Shown one piece after another: positions 17,349-56,851 of a stretch of DNA of 64,000 nt. The position numbers and the translations under genes were made by a program. The DNA is from Candidatus Poribacteria bacterium (GTDB taxonomy: Bacteria > Poribacteria > WGA-4E > WGA-3G), in contig OZ246979.1 in the NCBI GenBank assembly GCA_965232545.1, forward strand, positions 5,734,077 through 5,798,076, written 5' to 3'. Each line of letters begins with the position of its first letter. Position 1 is the stretch's first letter. The notes under the pieces were generated by a model that was not told where the DNA came from, did no database searches, and saw nothing but the letters and a program-made list of their open reading frames with translations.

Positions 17349-17451
17349 TTCTGCCAACTGCCTCTTGACGGCTATTCCTCTGACCGCCGACCGCCGACCG
17401 CTGACCGCCGACCGCTGATTGCTGACTGCTGACTGCTAACCGCTGATAGCC
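17349..17451 (+). repeat. Heptamer direct-repeat array (GCYGAYY, about 14 units)
   Basis: gctgacc gccgacc gccgacc gctgacc gccgacc gctgatt gctgact gctgact gctaacc gctgata, upstream of ThuA copy 1. Confidence 0.75.
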
Positions 17452-17527
17452 ATTCACCAAAAGGGTTTGCCAAAAAGTCTGATGATGTGCTAAACTGATA
17501 GATATTTCCAATGGAGGCGTTAAGGAT

Positions 17528-18331
17528 ATGTCAGAAAAATCTCGAATTGTTATGGTGGCAGGAAGTGCGAGTCATGGCGGTGGCGCGCATGAGCATCCCG
17601 CGGGGTGTGCCTATCTCGCCGATCAGTTGAACAAGGCTGTGGACAGCGTGGAAGTCGTGGTCTCGCAGGGATGGCCCGAAGATCCAGCGACTTTCACCGA
17701 TACAGATGCCATTATTGTTTACTCGGACGGTGGTGCTGGGCATCTTAGCATTCCACACCTTGAACAGATCTCTGGACTGGTGGAACAGGGTATCGGACTT
17801 GGGATGTTACACTATGCTGTGGAAGTGCCGAAGGGGGAACCCGGAGATCGCTTCTTGGAGTGGATCGGCGGCTACTTTGAGACCCACCTTTCGGTCAATC
17901 CGTATTGGACAGCAACGTTTACCGGATTTCCTGAACACCCCACAACACGCGGAATAGAGCCGTTTTCATTGGAAGACGAGTGGTATTACCACATGCGGTT
18001 TCGTGAAAATATGCAGGGTGTGACACCTGTGTTGAGTGCCATCGCACCTGCTTCGACACTTGAGAGACCCGACGGACCGCATAGCGGGAACCCGCATGTG
18101 CGCGCATCGGTAGCCAACGGTGAGCCGCAGCATCTCGGGTGGTGTGTAGAGCGTCCGGATGGAGGACGTGGATTCGGATTTACCGGCGGGCATCTCCATC
18201 GGAATTGGGCGGATGACGACCTCCGTAAATTCATTCTCAACGCGATCGCATGGACAGCAAAGGTAGAAATTCCTGAAGGGGGTATCTCTACGCCAACCCC
18301 GACTGAGGCAGAATTGGAGGCATATCTGTAG
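17528..18331 (+). CDS. ThuA-like (trehalose utilisation) domain protein, copy 1
   Basis: 267 aa ThuA/class-I glutamine amidotransferase-like fold. About 80% aa identity to the copy at 19749. A 40-bp promoter-region block is shared. Confidence 0.75.
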   Translation: MSEKSRIVMVAGSASHGGGAHEHPAGCAYLADQLNKAVDSVEVVVSQGWPEDPATFTDTDAIIVYSDGGAGHLSIPHLEQISGLVEQGIGLGMLHYAVEVPKGEPGDRFLEWIGGYFETHLSVNPYWTATFTGFPEHPTTRGIEPFSLEDEWYYHMRFRENMQGVTPVLSAIAPASTLERPDGPHSGNPHVRASVANGEPQHLGWCVERPDGGRGFGFTGGHLHRNWADDDLRKFILNAIAWTAKVEIPEGGISTPTPTEAELEAYL

Positions 18332-18560
18332 TTTTAGAGTCAATAACCCCAAGCTAAAGCATGGGGCTTGTGCGAAGCGTATGCCAAACGTTCACTCCAC
18401 AAGTTAAACTATTTTCTACAGTAAAATATCGCAGTATCTGGGCGTGGCAGCCTAAACAATGTTTCGGATACTCCCCTCGTCTGACTCACTCTAAGATATT
18501 GTGATCTGTAAGGGGCAATATACAACCCGTAAGGGAGATTACAAACTATGTTTGTTCCGG
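18332..18560 (+). ncRNA. Candidate omega-RNA region for IsrB (placement by analogy with IscB/IsrB systems)
   Basis: IscB/IsrB guide RNAs are encoded immediately upstream of, and overlapping, the ORF 5' end. The region opens with the IS-end hairpin CCCCAAGCTAAAGCATGGGG at 18347-18366. Boundaries not determinable by eye. Confidence 0.3.
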
Positions 18561-19600
18561 TGACGAGTCAAACAGGTCAGAAGTTGATGCCTACGCGTGC
18601 TAACAAGGCGGGTGTGCTGATTAAGAAAGGTTTCGCCACGCCCTATTGGTCTAATGGTATATTCTGTATCCGGCTTAACTATGCTATCGAAGACGCATAC
18701 ACACAAGATATAGTCGTAGGTGTAGACCCCGGTAGTAAGAAGGAAGGCTTTACCGTCAAATCAGAATCTCATACCTATTTGAATGTGCAAGCCGATGCTC
18801 ATAGGGGTGTCGGTAAGAAAGTTGAAAAACGTCGAGAGTTGCGTAGGAGTAGACGCTCTCGTAAATGTCCTAATCGCAAGAATAGAACCAACCGTCTTGC
18901 GAATAGAGAGCGTATCCCCGTAGGCACGCGTGCAAGGTGGGATTGGAAACTTCGTATACTTGATTGGCTTTCAAAGTTGTATCCACTCACACACGTATGT
19001 GTTGAAGATATTAAGGCACGAACAATAGAACGTGCTAAGAAATGGAATACCTCTTTTAGTCCACTTGAAGTCGGTAAGCAGTGGTTTTATACCGAAATCC
19101 GAAAGCAGTGGCAGTTGCTAACACTTCAAGGGTGGGAAACCAAAGAGATACGCGATAGCTTAGGACTCAAGAAGTCGTCAGACAAGATGTCAGAAACTTT
19201 TGACGCACATTGCGTAGATTCCTGGTGCTTGGCGTATCACACGGTTGGTGGTTCGGCTGTCCCTGATAACACGGACTTAATGTGTGTCTCACCGATACCG
19301 ATAAAGCGAAGAGAGTTGCATAGGCAACAGGAAGCGAAGGGGGGTAAACGCTCACGGGTGGGCGGCACTGTATTAGGTCAAGGCTTAGTCAAAAATACAT
19401 TGATTAAGCATGTCAAATACGGTTTAACACGACTTGCTGGCGTTAACGCAAAGGGTTTGTTTTCAATATACAGTATGGGAAACAAACGATTAACCACAGG
19501 GGCGAAGCGGTCTGATTTTAAAGTGCTAACACGCCTCAACTTTTACTACAGGAGTGGGCATTCCTCCCCAACCTAAAGGATGGGGTCTCCTGCCCGAAGA
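18335..19600 (+). mobile_element. IS200/IS605-family non-autonomous element encoding IsrB (no tnpA)
   Basis: Bounded by related subterminal hairpins: CCCCAAGCTAAAGCATGGGG at 18347-18366 and CCCCAACCTAAAGGATGGGG at 19566-19585, which show a compensatory G:C to C:G swap. Lies between two diverged ThuA paralogs. Confidence 0.55.
18548..19576 (+). CDS. isrB: IsrB (HNH-less IscB; OMEGA RNA-guided nickase)
   Basis: 342 aa. N-terminal PLMP-like GQKLMPTRANKAGVLIKKG...IRLNY, RuvC-I VGVDPGS, Arg-rich bridge helix RRELRRSRRSRKCPNRKNR, RuvC-II VCVEDIK, RuvC-III FDAHCVDSW. Only about 45 aa separate RuvC-II and RuvC-III, with no Cys/His HNH insert. Aligns block-for-block with the OgeuIscB N-terminal half. 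Confidence 0.7.
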   Translation: MFVPVTSQTGQKLMPTRANKAGVLIKKGFATPYWSNGIFCIRLNYAIEDAYTQDIVVGVDPGSKKEGFTVKSESHTYLNVQADAHRGVGKKVEKRRELRRSRRSRKCPNRKNRTNRLANRERIPVGTRARWDWKLRILDWLSKLYPLTHVCVEDIKARTIERAKKWNTSFSPLEVGKQWFYTEIRKQWQLLTLQGWETKEIRDSLGLKKSSDKMSETFDAHCVDSWCLAYHTVGGSAVPDNTDLMCVSPIPIKRRELHRQQEAKGGKRSRVGGTVLGQGLVKNTLIKHVKYGLTRLAGVNAKGLFSIYSMGNKRLTTGAKRSDFKVLTRLNFYYRSGHSSPT

Positions 19601-19748
19601 TTGATGATTTGGGTAATTCTGCACGGCTATTAAGTTTTCCTGTCTGGAATCCATTTTGAATACGAAACATTGCTGCCGAGATCCAGGGGACCTTAAGGCA
19701 TAGGGTGTGCTAAACTGATAGATATTCCCAACGGAGGATCCAAAAAAT

Positions 19749-20552
19749 ATGGCAAAGAAATCTCGAATTGTTTTGGTGGCAGGAAGTGGAAGTCGTGGTA
19801 GTGGCGCGCATGAGCATCCCGCTGGGTGTGCCTTTCTTGCCGAGCAGTTAAACAAAAATGTCGACGGCGTAGCGGCAGAGGTCTCTCAGGGGTGGCCCGA
19901 AGATCCAGCGATTTTCACCGATACAGATGCTATTATTGTTTATTCAGGCGGTGGTGAAAAACATCTTAGCATCCCGCATCTTGATCAGATCAGTGAATTG
20001 ATGGCACAGGGCATAGGACTCGCAATGTTACACTTTGCAGTCGAGGTGCCGAAGGGCAAGCCGGGTGATTGTTTCTTAGACTGGATCGGTGGTTACTTCG
20101 AACCAGGCCTTTCGGTGAATCCTTATTGGATAGCAACGTTTACTGAATTTTCTGAACACCCGATAACACGTGGAATGGAACCATTTTCATTGAAAGATGA
20201 GTGGTATTATCACATGCGGTTTCGTGAAAATATGCGGGGCGTGACACCTGTGTTGAGTGCGATTGCACCTGCATCAACGCTCAAAAGACCCGATGGACCA
20301 TATAGCGGCAATCCACAAGTCCGTGCTTCGGTTGCAAAGGGCGAACCACAGCACTTGGGGTGGTGTGTCGAACGTCCCGATGGCGGGCGTGGGTTCGGAT
20401 GTACCGGTGGACATTACCATCAGAATTGGGGGAATGATCAATTCCGTAAGTTAATTCTCAACGGGATTGTCTGGACAGCAAAGATGGAAGTCCCTGAAGG
20501 AGGTATCTCCACGCCGACACCAACCGAAATGGAATTGGAGGCGTATCTGTAA
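19749..20552 (+). CDS. ThuA-like domain protein, copy 2
   Basis: Paralog of 17528-18331, about 80% nt and aa identity. Visibly lower third-position GC than copy 1. Confidence 0.75.
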   Translation: MAKKSRIVLVAGSGSRGSGAHEHPAGCAFLAEQLNKNVDGVAAEVSQGWPEDPAIFTDTDAIIVYSGGGEKHLSIPHLDQISELMAQGIGLAMLHFAVEVPKGKPGDCFLDWIGGYFEPGLSVNPYWIATFTEFSEHPITRGMEPFSLKDEWYYHMRFRENMRGVTPVLSAIAPASTLKRPDGPYSGNPQVRASVAKGEPQHLGWCVERPDGGRGFGCTGGHYHQNWGNDQFRKLILNGIVWTAKMEVPEGGISTPTPTEMELEAYL

Positions 20553-20747
20553 TTGCGGAATAATTCGGGCTATTCTGTGTGTGAGGTTGAATGAAATTTA
20601 AGTATTTAAAACGGTACTCCCGGTTTTCCCAGACTCGGTAGGGGCAGTGTTTTTGCTGGGGTGTTTCCCGCACCGGGCATTGTTAGAAGATTATCGAATT
20701 ATTTTTCAACCGTATCTAACCGCATCTGCTGGGTAAGGAGACGAAAC

Positions 20748-21644: not shown

Positions 21645-21896
21645 ATGATGCGAAAAGTTGATTTGCAACAGCAGGCAGTTAGGTTAATCAGGCAGCTCTC
21701 TACCGAAAAACTCAAATCTGCTGTTGATTATCTCGTTTATCTTCAAGATGCAGAGACGCAAAGTGTCTCTTCTGATCACGAAATTCCATCACAAAATCTG
21801 GGAACGGCGATCCACGAAATGTTCAAACCTTTTGGCGGAGTGGAACTTGAGATACCCCCACGGGAACCGGCGCGAGAACCGCCTCGCTTTGACTAA
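21645..21896 (+). CDS. Putative antitoxin (VapB-like partner of the PIN toxin)
   Basis: 83 aa, 9 nt upstream of the PIN gene. Shares the motif LSTEKL..V.DYL with the 28454 ORF. Confidence 0.5.
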   Translation: MMRKVDLQQQAVRLIRQLSTEKLKSAVDYLVYLQDAETQSVSSDHEIPSQNLGTAIHEMFKPFGGVELEIPPREPAREPPRFD

Positions 21897-21905
21897 ATAC
21901 CAACC

Positions 21906-22328
21906 ATGATTGTTCTTGACACTAATGTCATCTCGGAACTCATGCGGGACAGTCCAGAACAGGCAGTTCTGGCTTGGTTTGGTACCCAGCCTGCCAGCAG
22001 CTTGTTCGTGACAACTGTCACCGAAGCGGAAATTTTGAGTGGTATAGCACTCTTACCTTATGGAAGGCGACGGCGCGGACTCTCGGAGGCTGCTGCTCGT
22101 GTATTTACTACGTTGTTCGCTGGACGCATCCTTGTTTTTGATAGTGATGCAGCGAACATTTACGCCGAGATTTTTGCTCAACGGCACGCAGCCGGTAGAC
22201 CGATAAGCCAAGCTGATTGTCAGATCGCCGCAATTGCTCGCTCCCGGGGGGCATCCCTCGCAACTCGAAATGTTACGGATTTTGAAGGGATTGAAGTTGA
22301 ACTTATCAATCCTTGGACACATCTCTAA
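21906..22328 (+). CDS. vapC: PIN-domain toxin VapC
   Basis: MIVLDTNVISEL N-terminus with the conserved Asp. 140 aa PIN fold. Confidence 0.75.
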   Translation: MIVLDTNVISELMRDSPEQAVLAWFGTQPASSLFVTTVTEAEILSGIALLPYGRRRRGLSEAAARVFTTLFAGRILVFDSDAANIYAEIFAQRHAAGRPISQADCQIAAIARSRGASLATRNVTDFEGIEVELINPWTHL

Positions 22329-50966: not shown

Positions 50967-51584
50967 TCAAGCGGAACAACATCGGACTTCTAAGCGAATA
51001 CCGACGGGCGATGCCATAGTCGCCGCTACTGGGACACCTAAGTGTCCAAGATACTTTTGTCTTATATTGATTGCGCCTACACCATCGCGATGATATGTAA
51101 AGCCACATTTACAGGTGTAGTTACGATTAGTAGGCTTCTTTCTATTGCCACAATGCGGACAAGTCTGCGAAGTGTAAGACTCATCAATCACTTCCACTTT
51201 GATACCTAAAGTCCTGGCTTTGTAGGTGATGAGTTGTGTGATTTTACCAAATGCCCACTGGTGTAACTTTTGATTCGCATGCTTGCCATAGTTGATATTT
51301 TCACGAATGCCAGTTAAATCGCCAAGCACAATGGTGCCAATACCACGCGATTCACACAACTTTACAAACTTTGTAGTGTGTTTGTGTAAGCCGTCCATTA
51401 TCTGGTTATCAATCTTTTTGATGCGTTTCCATTTGCGTTTCACCAGATGCCACCAGCGTTGAGAATGACGTTCGCACCTATCTATTTTCTTGCCAAATGA
51501 CGCGATTACCTTATGCCTCAACCGGTATAGACTTCTAATATACCGCCCATTAAAGATGTTAGTAATCACACCATCATGACTCAC
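50967..51584 (-). pseudogene. tnpB: N-terminally truncated TnpB (IS200/IS605 OrfB) remnant
   Basis: Retains RuvC-II IVLGDLTGIRE, zinc finger CPHCG...CKCG and RuvC-III HRDGVGAINIR, but lacks the RuvC-I region. Downstream hairpin CTCCAGTC-taaa-GACTGGAG at 50915-50934. Confidence 0.65.
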
Positions 51585-54699: not shown

Positions 54700-56135
54700 A
54701 GCTTAAATTTATCAATCTTCCGTCAAAACCCCATGCTTTAGCTTGGGGATGTAGACGGCGTATGAGTTTGTCGTTGAAAAAAGATTTGACATTTCGTGAA
54801 AAATGTCGTATAATTGATAGTATCAAGTTGGCAGACAGTTGAAGCGTAATCGCAAGGTTACGTGTCTGCCTACCCACTTCAACGGGGTTAAAGACTTGAT
54901 ACTTGATAGTCCATGAAAACCTATAAATACCCATTAGGGAAACAATCTAATACGATCCGCATTGGCAATCTGCTTGACGACATGTGGCAAGTTCATGAGT
55001 ATTTCCACAAGTGGCAAGACCAAAGATACAAAGACGGCTTGCCGTATGCGAACTATAACGCCATGTCTGCTCACGTGAAAACGTTGAAACGCACCACACA
55101 CCCACATTGGAAGGCGTTGCCAAGCCAAGCGATTCAAGCAGAACTCGAACGTATTGATAATGCGTATCAAAGGTTCTTTGATAAACTCGGTGGCAAGCCC
55201 CATATTAAAGCCCGCCATAAGTTTAAGTCTATCACACTTAAACAAACTGGATATAAACTGACGAATAATCGTATTACGCTCACATTTCGTCAATGGGCTA
55301 AGGGTAAGTGGAGGTTTGATAAAGTGCCATATACTTTCCATAAACACCGGCAATGGCATGGAACTATCAGTCGTATCACGATTAAGCGAGATAACTGCGG
55401 TGATTATTGGATTTGCATAACAACCACCTACACAGATTTCAAACTGCTGCCAGCAACAGGTAAAAGCGTTGGGGCAGACTTCGGTATGAAAGACGCGTAC
55501 TTGACACTTAGCACGGGTAAGAAGAAACAACACCCACAACCCTTGAAACAGTCCTTGAACAAACTTCGGTCTCTCAACAAAGACCTTTCTCGTAAAGTGA
55601 AAGGTTCTAACGGTTGGTGGCGGTGTGTGAGCCAAATCGCCCGTCTGTATCGGAAAATAAGCAACCAACGCAAAGATTTCCATTGGCAACTCGCCTCTGA
55701 ACTTTGTAAGAAGTTTGATACGATTGCGATTGAAACGCTGAACCTTGACGGTATGAAACGCTTGTGGGGACGTAAAGTCTCCGACCTTGCGTTCTATCAG
55801 TTTGTTGAGATATTGAAGTATAAGTGTCAAAAACATAAGCGTCTTTTGAAGCAAGTCGGTCCATGGACGGCGACAACGAAACCGTGTAGTGAGTGTGGTT
55901 TTCATAACGAAACGCTAACTTTGGACGATAGGCAGTGGACGTGTCCTGACTGTGGTTCACACCACGATAGAGACATCAACGCTGCGATAAACATATTGCG
56001 GGCAGGGATAGCCATCACTTGACGATATGCCTTGTCTCTGACAAGGGAAATGCCCGCAGGTGGAGCGACAGTTAGACGGTGGACTCTCCGAGAAAACCGC
56101 AGTTGCGACGAAGCCGAAGCCCCTGCCTTTAGGTA
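54700..56135 (+). mobile_element. IS200/IS605-family tnpB-only element (IS1341-like)
   Basis: Left-end hairpin CCCCATGCTTTAGCTTGGGG at 54729-54748, which is the reverse complement of the IsrB-element end hairpin. Consensus promoter TTGACA-17-TATAAT at 54785-54813. Right-end hairpin CCTTGTC-tct-GACAAGG at 56030-56046. Confidence 0.7.
54913..56022 (+). CDS. tnpB: TnpB (RNA-guided RuvC-like endonuclease, IS200/IS605 OrfB)
   Basis: RuvC-I GADFGM, RuvC-II IAIETLNLDGMKR, zinc finger CSECG..CPDCG, RuvC-III HDRDINAAINI. Confidence 0.85.
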   Translation: MKTYKYPLGKQSNTIRIGNLLDDMWQVHEYFHKWQDQRYKDGLPYANYNAMSAHVKTLKRTTHPHWKALPSQAIQAELERIDNAYQRFFDKLGGKPHIKARHKFKSITLKQTGYKLTNNRITLTFRQWAKGKWRFDKVPYTFHKHRQWHGTISRITIKRDNCGDYWICITTTYTDFKLLPATGKSVGADFGMKDAYLTLSTGKKKQHPQPLKQSLNKLRSLNKDLSRKVKGSNGWWRCVSQIARLYRKISNQRKDFHWQLASELCKKFDTIAIETLNLDGMKRLWGRKVSDLAFYQFVEILKYKCQKHKRLLKQVGPWTATTKPCSECGFHNETLTLDDRQWTCPDCGSHHDRDINAAINILRAGIAIT

Positions 56136-56851
56136 GTGGGTGCTATCACTGTGATCATACCAACGTCTGCCGTTGTGAATTCCGCGGAGTCGCTGATACG
56201 GATCATAATCGCGAATAATCTGGAAGAACCGATCCCAAATGGATAGTAGACGGGTTCGTTTTTGTTGTAAGAGTAATCTTTTGGAAAAATGCACATCCGC
56301 ATCTTGTTAAAGGGCGCATCAGCAAGGGTTTCGAGCGTCTGTTTTTCCATCGCTTCCCCTTGATGTGCCCAAGCATAACACGTCGTTCCGAATTGATGGT
56401 AGGGTGTATCGTCGGCATAGCGGAGATAGAACTCTTTATAGACGCGGACAGGTCCGTGATTTCCATCGGACGGTGCAACGCACGTAAACTGCCCTGTCTT
56501 ACCGTTAAGTTCAGCGGTGTTACTTTTTGTGATATACGTCCATTCGCCGACTGCGTCGGGCATAAACCGGATTTTGTAAACACCGTCTCCGTCGTAGAAA
56601 CCCTGCGGCTCGAACGTCTGTCCTTCGTTTGTATCACGGTGTTTAAATTCTGCTGTTAATTCAACCTCAGTGAACGGATTTCCTGTGTCCGGTCCACTCA
56701 GAGTTACTTCATATACTCCCCAGCGTTCAACCATATTCACCTCCGATTTTGGTGCATTTTGCGGGTTTCCAAAACTTGTTGTTAAAAAGTGTGTATTTAC
56801 GAGCGAAAACGCAACCGCAAAAACCACTATTGTCAAAATTTTTCTTATCAT
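56129..56851 (-). pseudogene. DUF5060/DUF4038-type glycoside-hydrolase-like gene, frameshifted and 3'-truncated by the tnpB element
   Basis: N-terminal DUF5060 signature [11 protein letters not shown]...[15 protein letters not shown]. After ...[15 protein letters not shown] the homologous sequence continues in another frame ([28 protein letters not shown] 55902-56294) and then runs into the IS right end. Confidence 0.5.

Follow-up and report, generated by a model that had tools for sequence, protein, structure and literature searches.

A probably intact, non-autonomous IsrB transposon with its omega-RNA between two ThuA genes of Candidatus Poribacteria

The DNA analysed here, referred to below as the window, is a stretch of 64,000 nucleotides (nt) from a Candidatus Poribacteria bacterium (contig OZ246979.1, positions 5,734,077 to 5,798,076, forward strand; GenBank assembly GCA_965232545.1), and all coordinates are given within it. 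Two genes of 267 amino acids (aa) each, ThuA1 (17528-18331, + strand) and ThuA2 (19749-20552, + strand), flank a 342-aa open reading frame (ORF), isrB (18548-19576, + strand), and the 209 nt that precede it. An earlier note on this DNA had read the interval between them as an apparently intact OMEGA element encoding IsrB, the HNH-less relative of IscB, inserted between two ThuA paralogs. The insertion site was recognized correctly, as both flanking genes matched Pfam ThuA; they are 80% identical at the nucleotide level over 17486-18333 and 19706-20554. The ThuA1 stop codon lies 7 nt upstream of the element start and the sequence ATGA follows directly downstream of the element. As detailed below, the interval 18339-19603 is most probably an intact, non-autonomous transposon of the IS200/IS605 family (ISC1-type) that encodes IsrB and its omega-RNA.

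Relatives of the element were collected by a scan of one genome per species, which returned 349 stretches encoding relatives, and flanks were compared among copies from the best 80 of these. The element ends were set by aligning the flanks of 66 distinct Poribacteria insertions. In this alignment conservation began at GTCAATAACCCC (18339) and stopped after CCCGAAGATTG (19603), both edges being sharp; the 5' flanks of the 66 copies were unrelated, without conservation upstream of 18339. Directly after the conserved end, all 66 distinct insertions carried RTGA or ATAA, by far most commonly ATGA(A), and the flanks diverged beyond this motif. The whole element therefore measures 1265 base pairs (18339-19603, + in the orientation of isrB), and the boundaries given by the earlier note, 18332-19600, were corrected accordingly. 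No further copy was found in the 64-kb window by blastn with the element.

In IscB elements the right end (RE) of the transposon sits upstream of the iscB gene (Meers et al. 2023, bioRxiv 10.1101/2023.03.14.532601). By this rule the element corresponds to the minus strand in the frame of the transposase TnpA, with its RE at 18339 and its left end (LE) at 19603. Both ends carry subterminal hairpins formed by imperfect palindromes, without terminal inverted repeats, and no repeat was seen in the listed flanks of the copies, where target-site duplication was judged by eye only. The RE hairpin CCCCAAGCTAAAGCATGGGG (18347-18366, +), presumably bound by TnpA, coincides with stem-loop 1 (SL1) of the omega-RNA and shows compensatory changes in 4 of its 7 pairs. 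The LE hairpin CCCCAACCTAAAGGATGGGG (19566-19585, +) overlaps the last isrB codons and holds the TAA stop (19574-19576) in its loop. Both belong to one 20-nt type, CCCCAAsCTAAAGsATGGGG, in the same orientation and at 8 and 18 nt from the respective ends, and the motif was counted three times in the window against 0.02 expected.

The 342-aa ORF was present as described in the earlier note, without internal stops, and every motif named there was located: KLMP at residues 12-15, the RuvC-I motif VGVDPGS at 57-63, the arginine-rich bridge helix RRELRRSRRSRK at 95-106, the RuvC-II motif CVEDIK at 151-156 and the RuvC-III motif DAHCVDS at 219-225. Within the PLMP domain, M14 and P15 were invariant in 83 copies, and this region aligns with residues 7-59 of DtIsrB, the IsrB of Desulfovirgula thermocuniculi, including its P17 and P20. 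In a Pfam search the one noteworthy match was RRXRR (PF14239) at 1e-28. When 1.84 billion cluster representatives were searched exhaustively, 1085 relatives were obtained at E<=1e-3, of which the full-length ones measured about 330-350 aa. The best solved relative in a single-sequence search was DtIsrB (8DMB; E=4.6e-30, residues 3-290), and a profile built from 26 diverse relatives, 31-49% identical to the query, extended the match over the whole length of DtIsrB (residues 7-339, E=1e-84), the TAM-interacting domain (TAM, transposon-adjacent motif) included. The profile searches thus assign the protein to the IscB/IsrB lineage.

With the numbering of the DtIsrB chain calibrated on Pro17, Pro20 and Asn265, which are named in PMC9581776, residues D60, E153, H221 and D224 aligned to DtIsrB D65, E159, H226 and D229 and were invariant in 82-83 of 83 copies, as expected from the complete set of RuvC acidic and histidine positions claimed before. 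DtIsrB recognizes the G of its TAM through arginine R323, which is conserved here as R314. The spacing between the RuvC-II glutamate and the RuvC-III histidine (E153-H221) is 68 aa, compared with 67 aa in DtIsrB, and the alignment is collinear without insertion; there is therefore no room for an HNH domain. In keeping with this, the Pfam search of the 342-aa protein matched no HNH family even at E<=1, and the HNH-less architecture inferred from the letters alone was borne out.

The protein might instead be an IscB with its HNH domain, a TnpB or another RuvC protein misread as IsrB, and the NCBIfam model guided_IscB does match its N-terminal half. However, that match covers model positions 3-157 of 314 and reaches 83 bits against a cut-off of 175, no HNH family was matched, IscB structures align over the N-terminal 112-160 residues only whereas DtIsrB aligns end to end, and the full-length relatives measure about 330-350 aa. 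We regard such a misassignment as extremely improbable. By its sequence, the ORF encodes an IsrB homologue that is full-length, retains every RuvC catalytic residue and lacks an HNH domain.

The region between the element start and isrB was analysed as a candidate omega-RNA scaffold (18339-18547, +; 209 nt) in an alignment of 56 distinct leaders. RNAalifold gave 38 pairs, 20 of them with compensatory changes; a fuller structure, written by hand and including stem S1 and two pseudoknots, was then counted over the same alignment. It holds 61 pairs in 11 helices, in which 93.9% of cells were paired compared with 33-42% when partners were slid. Both sides had changed in 29 of the 61 pairs, a number that none of 500 shuffles reached; cells changed on both sides numbered 281 versus 71 in shuffles, and the covariation score was 0.279 versus 0.121 in shuffles and at most 0.059 in the slid controls. 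The minimum-free-energy fold of the window copy alone gave the same helices.

Besides SL1, the scaffold on the + strand comprises S1 (18339-18345 with 18410-18416), SL2 (18367-18403), S2 (18419-18421 with 18506-18508), S3/S4 (18428-18439 with 18494-18505), SL4 (18441-18452) and SL5 (18464-18484). Two predicted long-range contacts connect these. In the adaptor pseudoknot, the SL2 loop TGCCA (18382-18386) pairs with the SL4 loop TGGCA (18445-18449), its helix being 91.8% paired and its pair 49:144 being A-U in 27 copies and G-C in another 27. In the nexus-type pseudoknot, the SL5 loop CCCCT (18473-18477) pairs with AGGGG (18511-18515), the helix being 96.8% paired and pair 174:208 being U-A in 25 copies and A-U in 23. 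The SL7 hairpin CCCGTAAGGG (18526-18535), with compensatory changes in 2 of 3 pairs, contains the Shine-Dalgarno sequence GGGAG just 5' of the ATG, an arrangement also described for the DtIsrB omega-RNA (PMC9581776). The wiring thus joins the SL2 loop to the first inner hairpin loop, and the second inner hairpin loop to the linker before the Shine-Dalgarno hairpin; SL3, SL6 and SL8 are lacking. The predicted layout is that of the published 'group A' omega-RNAs (A2-like). As a separate observation, the omega-RNAs of two sister copies (L025 and L065) carry an insertion of about 25 nt, CTTTGCGAATGCCACACGCGCATTCGC, where SL3 sits in some published IsrB omega-RNAs (alignment A1, columns 93-117); the insertion is absent from the window copy, and its arms appeared self-complementary by eye.

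The Rfam family HEARO (RF02033) matched the window at 19.9 bits over its whole model, starting exactly at 18339, the first base of the element, and it recurred at the same register in 6 of 9 sister copies (24-35 bits, E down to 0.0016). The shared portion is the 5' part, with GUCAA at the start, the CCCC-CUAAAG-GGGG hairpin and the CUUG...CAAG stem, whereas the internal domain is rearranged, and the scores of the window and its sisters (19.9-34.8 bits) compare with a gathering score of 83. The scaffold is therefore a distant relative of HEARO and a non-member by the Rfam criterion. The strong covariation and this sub-threshold match answer the question of whether a structured RNA lies upstream of the ORF. 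Of the omega-RNA proposed in the earlier note, the upstream part stands, as structured RNA with covariation in 209 nt; its proposed extension into the coding sequence does not, as the scaffold stops at about the start codon and not far into the ORF.

These 209 nt could also be thought of as a transposon end followed by a 5' untranslated region with translational-control hairpins, with no guide RNA involved. SL1 indeed coincides with the DNA hairpin that would be needed by TnpA, and SL7 sequesters the Shine-Dalgarno sequence. Nevertheless, covariation runs through nine further helices, including the two long-range pseudoknots, for which neither a DNA end nor a simple leader has any need; the same layout is known from the published group A IsrB omega-RNA, and the HEARO matches recur in register. 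This explanation is accordingly rated very unlikely.

In contrast to the conserved scaffold, the segment immediately 5' of it differed in every copy. Because these 5' flanks are unrelated between copies, the predicted guide is GGCATATCTGTAGTTTTAGA (18319-18338, +), which consists of the last 10 nt of the ThuA1 coding sequence, its TAG stop and the 7-nt spacer. Its 20-nt length and its 5' end are predicted by analogy with DtIsrB, the guide of which is 20 nt long (PMC9581776). The interval described in the earlier note missed this segment, which lies outside it, within the end of ThuA1.

On the other side of the element, the predicted TAM is ATGAT (19604-19608, +), whose reverse complement, ATCAT, is the motif that TnpA would target 5' of the LE; in the TnpA frame this target motif reads ATCAT in the window and TTCAT in most copies. 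Published TAMs are NTGA/TTGA for DtIsrB (PMC9581776) and, for GstIscB, TTCAT, the reverse complement of ATGAA (Meers et al. 2023, bioRxiv 10.1101/2023.03.14.532601). The element itself opens with GTCAA, which is two positions away from ATGAA. The occupied site is thus not expected to be a target, because the guide match there precedes GTCAA rather than ATGAA. The 3' end of ThuA2 was considered as a second target and rejected as unlikely, since the guide-like site at 20540 is mismatched at 5 of 20 positions.

Transcription of the guide would start outside the element. The sole promoter-like site found upstream lies at 17467-17496, in front of ThuA1, and no terminator-like site was found between ThuA1 and the element. 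ThuA1 is co-oriented with isrB and is the likely source of read-through into guide and scaffold; these data fit a supply of the guide by ThuA1 read-through transcription. Among sister insertions, 41 were co-oriented with the upstream ORF and 13 were opposite (54 callable, in a crude ORF-based count), and the same orientation bias has been reported for IscB elements (Meers et al. 2023, bioRxiv 10.1101/2023.03.14.532601).

The best 80 of the 349 stretches all came from Candidatus Poribacteria metagenome-assembled genomes, except one labelled only as uncultured bacterium, and among them a single chromosome holds up to nine or more copies. The homologues in the large protein collection were likewise from Poribacteria where named. 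A full-length ORF was found in 82 of the 83 copies examined, with invariant catalytic residues. The ratio of nonsynonymous to synonymous divergence (dN/dS) was 0.065-0.27 between the window copy and 13 of 16 sister copies, the other three being too similar or too diverged, and the IsrB family is under purifying selection.

Two copies (L005 and L006), located at 2.11 and 4.54 Mb of OX639973.1, were 100% identical over 1269 nt and had unrelated flanks, and other pairs were 98.2-99.6% identical. Judged from these copies, the family has moved recently. Near-identical copies at different sites of one chromosome each were also seen for L040/L046, for L013/L015 and for the group L056/L062/L069/L070/L075, and IsrB subfamilies that are 78-88% identical share a genome with such near-identical copies. 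This pattern suggests that several IsrB lineages co-exist in Poribacteria and have gone through recent bursts of transposition. Among the papers that could be searched, none linked Poribacteria with IsrB, IscB or TnpB; this lineage and its expansion are therefore probably undescribed.

The same set of copies bears on whether the protein has been domesticated as an RNA-guided DNA binder or regulator that serves the host rather than a transposon. The locus is stable across samples, as such a role would demand; however, the catalytic tetrad is invariant, the guide is whatever flanks each copy, the transposon ends and TAM are kept, and genomes hold many copies. Domestication is for these reasons hardly credible.

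The origin of the transposase was examined within the window and around the sister loci. A tblastn search of the 64-kb window with the TnpA of IS608 and with a Poribacteria TnpA from locus L010 detected no tnpA. The window copy is therefore non-autonomous, as had been proposed. A nearby tnpA was found at only 1 of 80 sister loci, L010 (CATOTL010000001.1, 2650-5770). There, the start codon of a Y1 tnpA (Pfam Y1_Tnp, 4.5e-39) lies in the sequence ATGAA, and an IsrB element has inserted precisely at this ATGAA. The tnpA is part of a tnpA-tnpB IS605 element with a left-end hairpin of the same type, located about 113 nt upstream of the inserted IsrB copy. Here, then, one OMEGA element has entered the transposase gene of another, which it has probably silenced.

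The third hairpin of the window (54729-54748) matches the reverse complement of the IsrB hairpin at 18347-18366 exactly. It had been considered as a 'solo' remnant of a deleted IsrB element, and this was rejected, as the hairpin forms the left end of a TnpB element (54717-56145, +) that is intact and separate. The tnpB coding sequence (54913-56022) encodes an intact 369-aa TnpB with Pfam OrfB_IS605 and Cas12f1-like TNB domains. The left end reads TTTAT followed by CAATCTTC and, further in, CCCCATGCTTTAGCTTGGGG, or, in a fuller reading, TTTAT followed by CAATCTTCCGTCAAAAC up to CCCCATGCTTTAGCTTGGGG; a similar hairpin, CCCCTGCCTTTAGGTAGTGGG, lies 3' of tnpB at about 56121-56141. The window also holds a truncated, presumably dead tnpB (205-aa ORF, 50967-51584, - strand), a C-terminal half that matches Pfam TNB and OrfB_IS605 and is 73% identical to residues 204-413 of the L010 TnpB. 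The matching TnpB and IsrB hairpins make a shared, trans-acting TnpA plausible, and judging by these sequences a single TnpA end code seems to serve both kinds of element in this genome.

The absence of a nearby transposase raises the possibility that the element is a stranded relic, structurally intact and no longer mobile or active, with no compatible TnpA left in the genome and with an ORF kept intact by its youth or by hitch-hiking with ThuA. The lack of tnpA in the window and its presence near only one of the sister loci would agree with this, as would the fixation of the insertion, which four further metagenome contigs share with 0-7 substitutions within the element. On the other hand, mobilization in trans is the rule for this class, as a nearby tnpA accompanies no more than about 1.5% of iscB genes (Meers et al. 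2023, bioRxiv 10.1101/2023.03.14.532601); identical and 98-99.6% identical copies at different loci indicate recent movement of the family; and the window copy retains both hairpins, the TAM, the catalytic residues and every RNA helix. A relic is therefore considered unlikely, though a possibility to be taken seriously.

For a mobile IsrB element, a mechanism can be proposed on the basis of IsrB structure and biochemistry (PMC9581776) and of work on TnpB and IscB (bioRxiv 10.1101/2023.03.14.532601; PMC13565253). The RNA would be transcribed from outside the element, probably by ThuA1 read-through, and because of this its 5' end would carry about 20 nt of flank (18319-18338) as the guide. IsrB would bind this omega-RNA. 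A TnpA supplied in trans would excise the element as single-stranded DNA and reseal the flanks, and the resealed donor joint would then read GGCATATCTGTAGTTTTAGA followed directly by ATGAT, that is, a guide match plus TAM; the empty ThuA1 junction would read ThuA1 followed by ATGATTTGGG. IsrB would nick the non-target strand at this joint, and recombinational repair from a sister chromosome still carrying the element would restore it ('restorative homing'). Both nicking and homing by the window IsrB are predicted by analogy with the published systems. SL1, which was dispensable for nicking in published work, was tied to transposition there (PMC9581776).

Taken together, the protein profile, the catalytic residues, the RNA covariation and both ends support the view that 18339-19603 is an intact, non-autonomous IS200/IS605-family transposon of Candidatus Poribacteria encoding IsrB and its omega-RNA, as the earlier note had proposed, and we assign it a probability of about 0.88. 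Several points weigh against it. The tblastn searches for tnpA in the window were negative. The HEARO score of 19.9 bits is far under the gathering score. T317 stands at the position of DtIsrB Q326, which reads the fourth base (A4) of the TAM, and the single-sequence AlphaFold2 model had a predicted local distance difference test (pLDDT) score of 32.6, unusable for fold comparison. Restorative homing has been demonstrated for TnpB and IscB and not for the nickase IsrB (2026 review, PMC13565253). Finally, a search of metagenome contigs for an empty site with the exact donor-joint pattern CTGTAGTTTTAGA N{0,15} TTTGGGTAATTC gave 0 matches, and relatives seeded with ThuA1 had a single ThuA followed by PhyH, with intergenic DNA too diverged to rebuild the empty junction. 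As no empty site was found, the division between the last base of the element and the first base of the TAM rests on analogy with the end of the co-resident TnpB element, CAATCTTC, and with published TAMs.

When compared with known systems, the closest one with a solved structure is the DtIsrB-omegaRNA complex (8DMB; Hirano et al. 2022, PMC9581776), with about 30-35% sequence identity between the proteins. Both proteins have the same domain order (PLMP, RuvC-I, bridge helix, REC linker, RuvC-II, HNH linker, RuvC-III, phosphate-lock/WED and TAM-interacting domain), the catalytic D/E/H/D, the TAM-reading arginine and a TAM containing TGA. In both systems the omega-RNA lies upstream with its guide at the 5' end, SL1 is the transposon-end hairpin and the Shine-Dalgarno sequence is in SL7. 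The window element differs in its shorter scaffold (209 nt versus 262 nt), in its group A pseudoknot wiring (SL2-SL4, and SL5 with the pre-SL7 linker) as opposed to group B1, in the lack of SL3, SL6 and SL8, in T317 in place of Q326, and in its host, a mesophilic marine sponge symbiont rather than a thermophile. The group A2 BbIsrB from Burkholderiales (Hirano et al. 2022, Fig. 4), compared by its description only, has the same pseudoknot partners, unpaired linkers in the same positions and likewise no SL3, SL6 or SL8, whereas its TAM is NTGG and the flanking motif here is ATGA.

The ISGst5 element of Geobacillus stearothermophilus (Meers et al. 2023), which encodes an IscB, is likewise a non-autonomous IS200/IS605 element with an omega-RNA bounded by the RE and a nuclease gene antisense to the TnpA frame. 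Its TAM, TTCAT, is the reverse complement of the commonest motif found here, ATGAA, and the motif inside its RE is also two positions off the TAM (GTCAA versus ATGAA here). Both genomes hold co-resident TnpB elements with the same end type, and in both cases insertions are biased towards the orientation of the upstream gene. In contrast, the ISGst5 IscB has an HNH domain and makes double-strand breaks, whereas the window element encodes a predicted nickase.

The history of the ThuA locus was followed in related contigs. The ThuA1-IsrB-ThuA2 arrangement was also present in the four other metagenome contigs mentioned above, whereas more distant relatives (L085-L089) have an amidohydrolase, a single ThuA and PhyH. 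Because these distant relatives carry a single ThuA, both the ThuA duplication and the insertion are lineage-specific. Between the window and contigs L082 and L083, the element showed 0 substitutions and the ThuA genes about 2%, in clustered patches, while divergence of the outer flanks was roughly 1-17% in bins of 250 nt, with most bins at about 5-10%. Of the 19 differences in ThuA1, 17 fell at sites where one of the two strains had the base of the other paralog, and the same was true of 16 of the 19 in ThuA2. As they match the base of the paralog, these differences would be due to gene conversion or exchange between the paralogs, or to cross-talk between them during assembly. A sweep of the element alone between strains was also considered, and is weakened by the fact that the whole ThuA1-IsrB-ThuA2 block is near-identical, the ThuA differences being paralog exchanges or assembly cross-talk.

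A bolder proposal can be built on these data: that an RNA-guided nickase IsrB lineage with a compact omega-RNA is currently active and highly expanded in sponge-symbiont Poribacteria, shares one TnpA end code with TnpB, and that nick-triggered repair has in addition helped to create or spread the ThuA1-IsrB-ThuA2 block. The points behind its last part are the single ThuA of the relatives, the near-identical block between outer flanks that are 5-10% apart, and the paralog exchanges. As a whole we hold this proposal to be improbable; if true, an RNA-guided nickase would in this natural instance have driven the gene conversion or duplication of adjoining host DNA.

Some further features of the surroundings were recorded. 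Upstream of ThuA1, the region 17380-17450 contains degenerate short repeats (CCGCCGACCGCTGAC and GCTGACTGCTGACTGCTAACCGCTGA). Downstream of PhyH, in the region 21645-22328, a small, antitoxin-like ORF of 83 aa precedes one of 140 aa. Contig L081, which has a 100%-identical ThuA1, carries a PIN-domain (VapC-type) gene of the same length as the 140-aa ORF and in the matching position, and contig L082, syntenic in other respects, lacks this PIN gene.

Publications already describe IsrB (ISC1) elements together with their omega-RNAs, TAMs and structure, and all testable features of the window element agreed with IsrB. The element contributes a clearly delimited natural IsrB system of mesophilic marine origin, in which the ends, the predicted guide, the TAM, the 209-nt fold and the catalytic residues are defined. 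The many recently mobile copies could serve searches for small nickase editors, as well as tests of whether a nickase supports the restorative homing of a transposon. Knowledge of the IsrB class is left unchanged by the window element, which is an ordinary but well-supported addition to a class of selfish elements that carry an RNA-guided nickase, the HNH-less relative of the Cas9 ancestor IscB.

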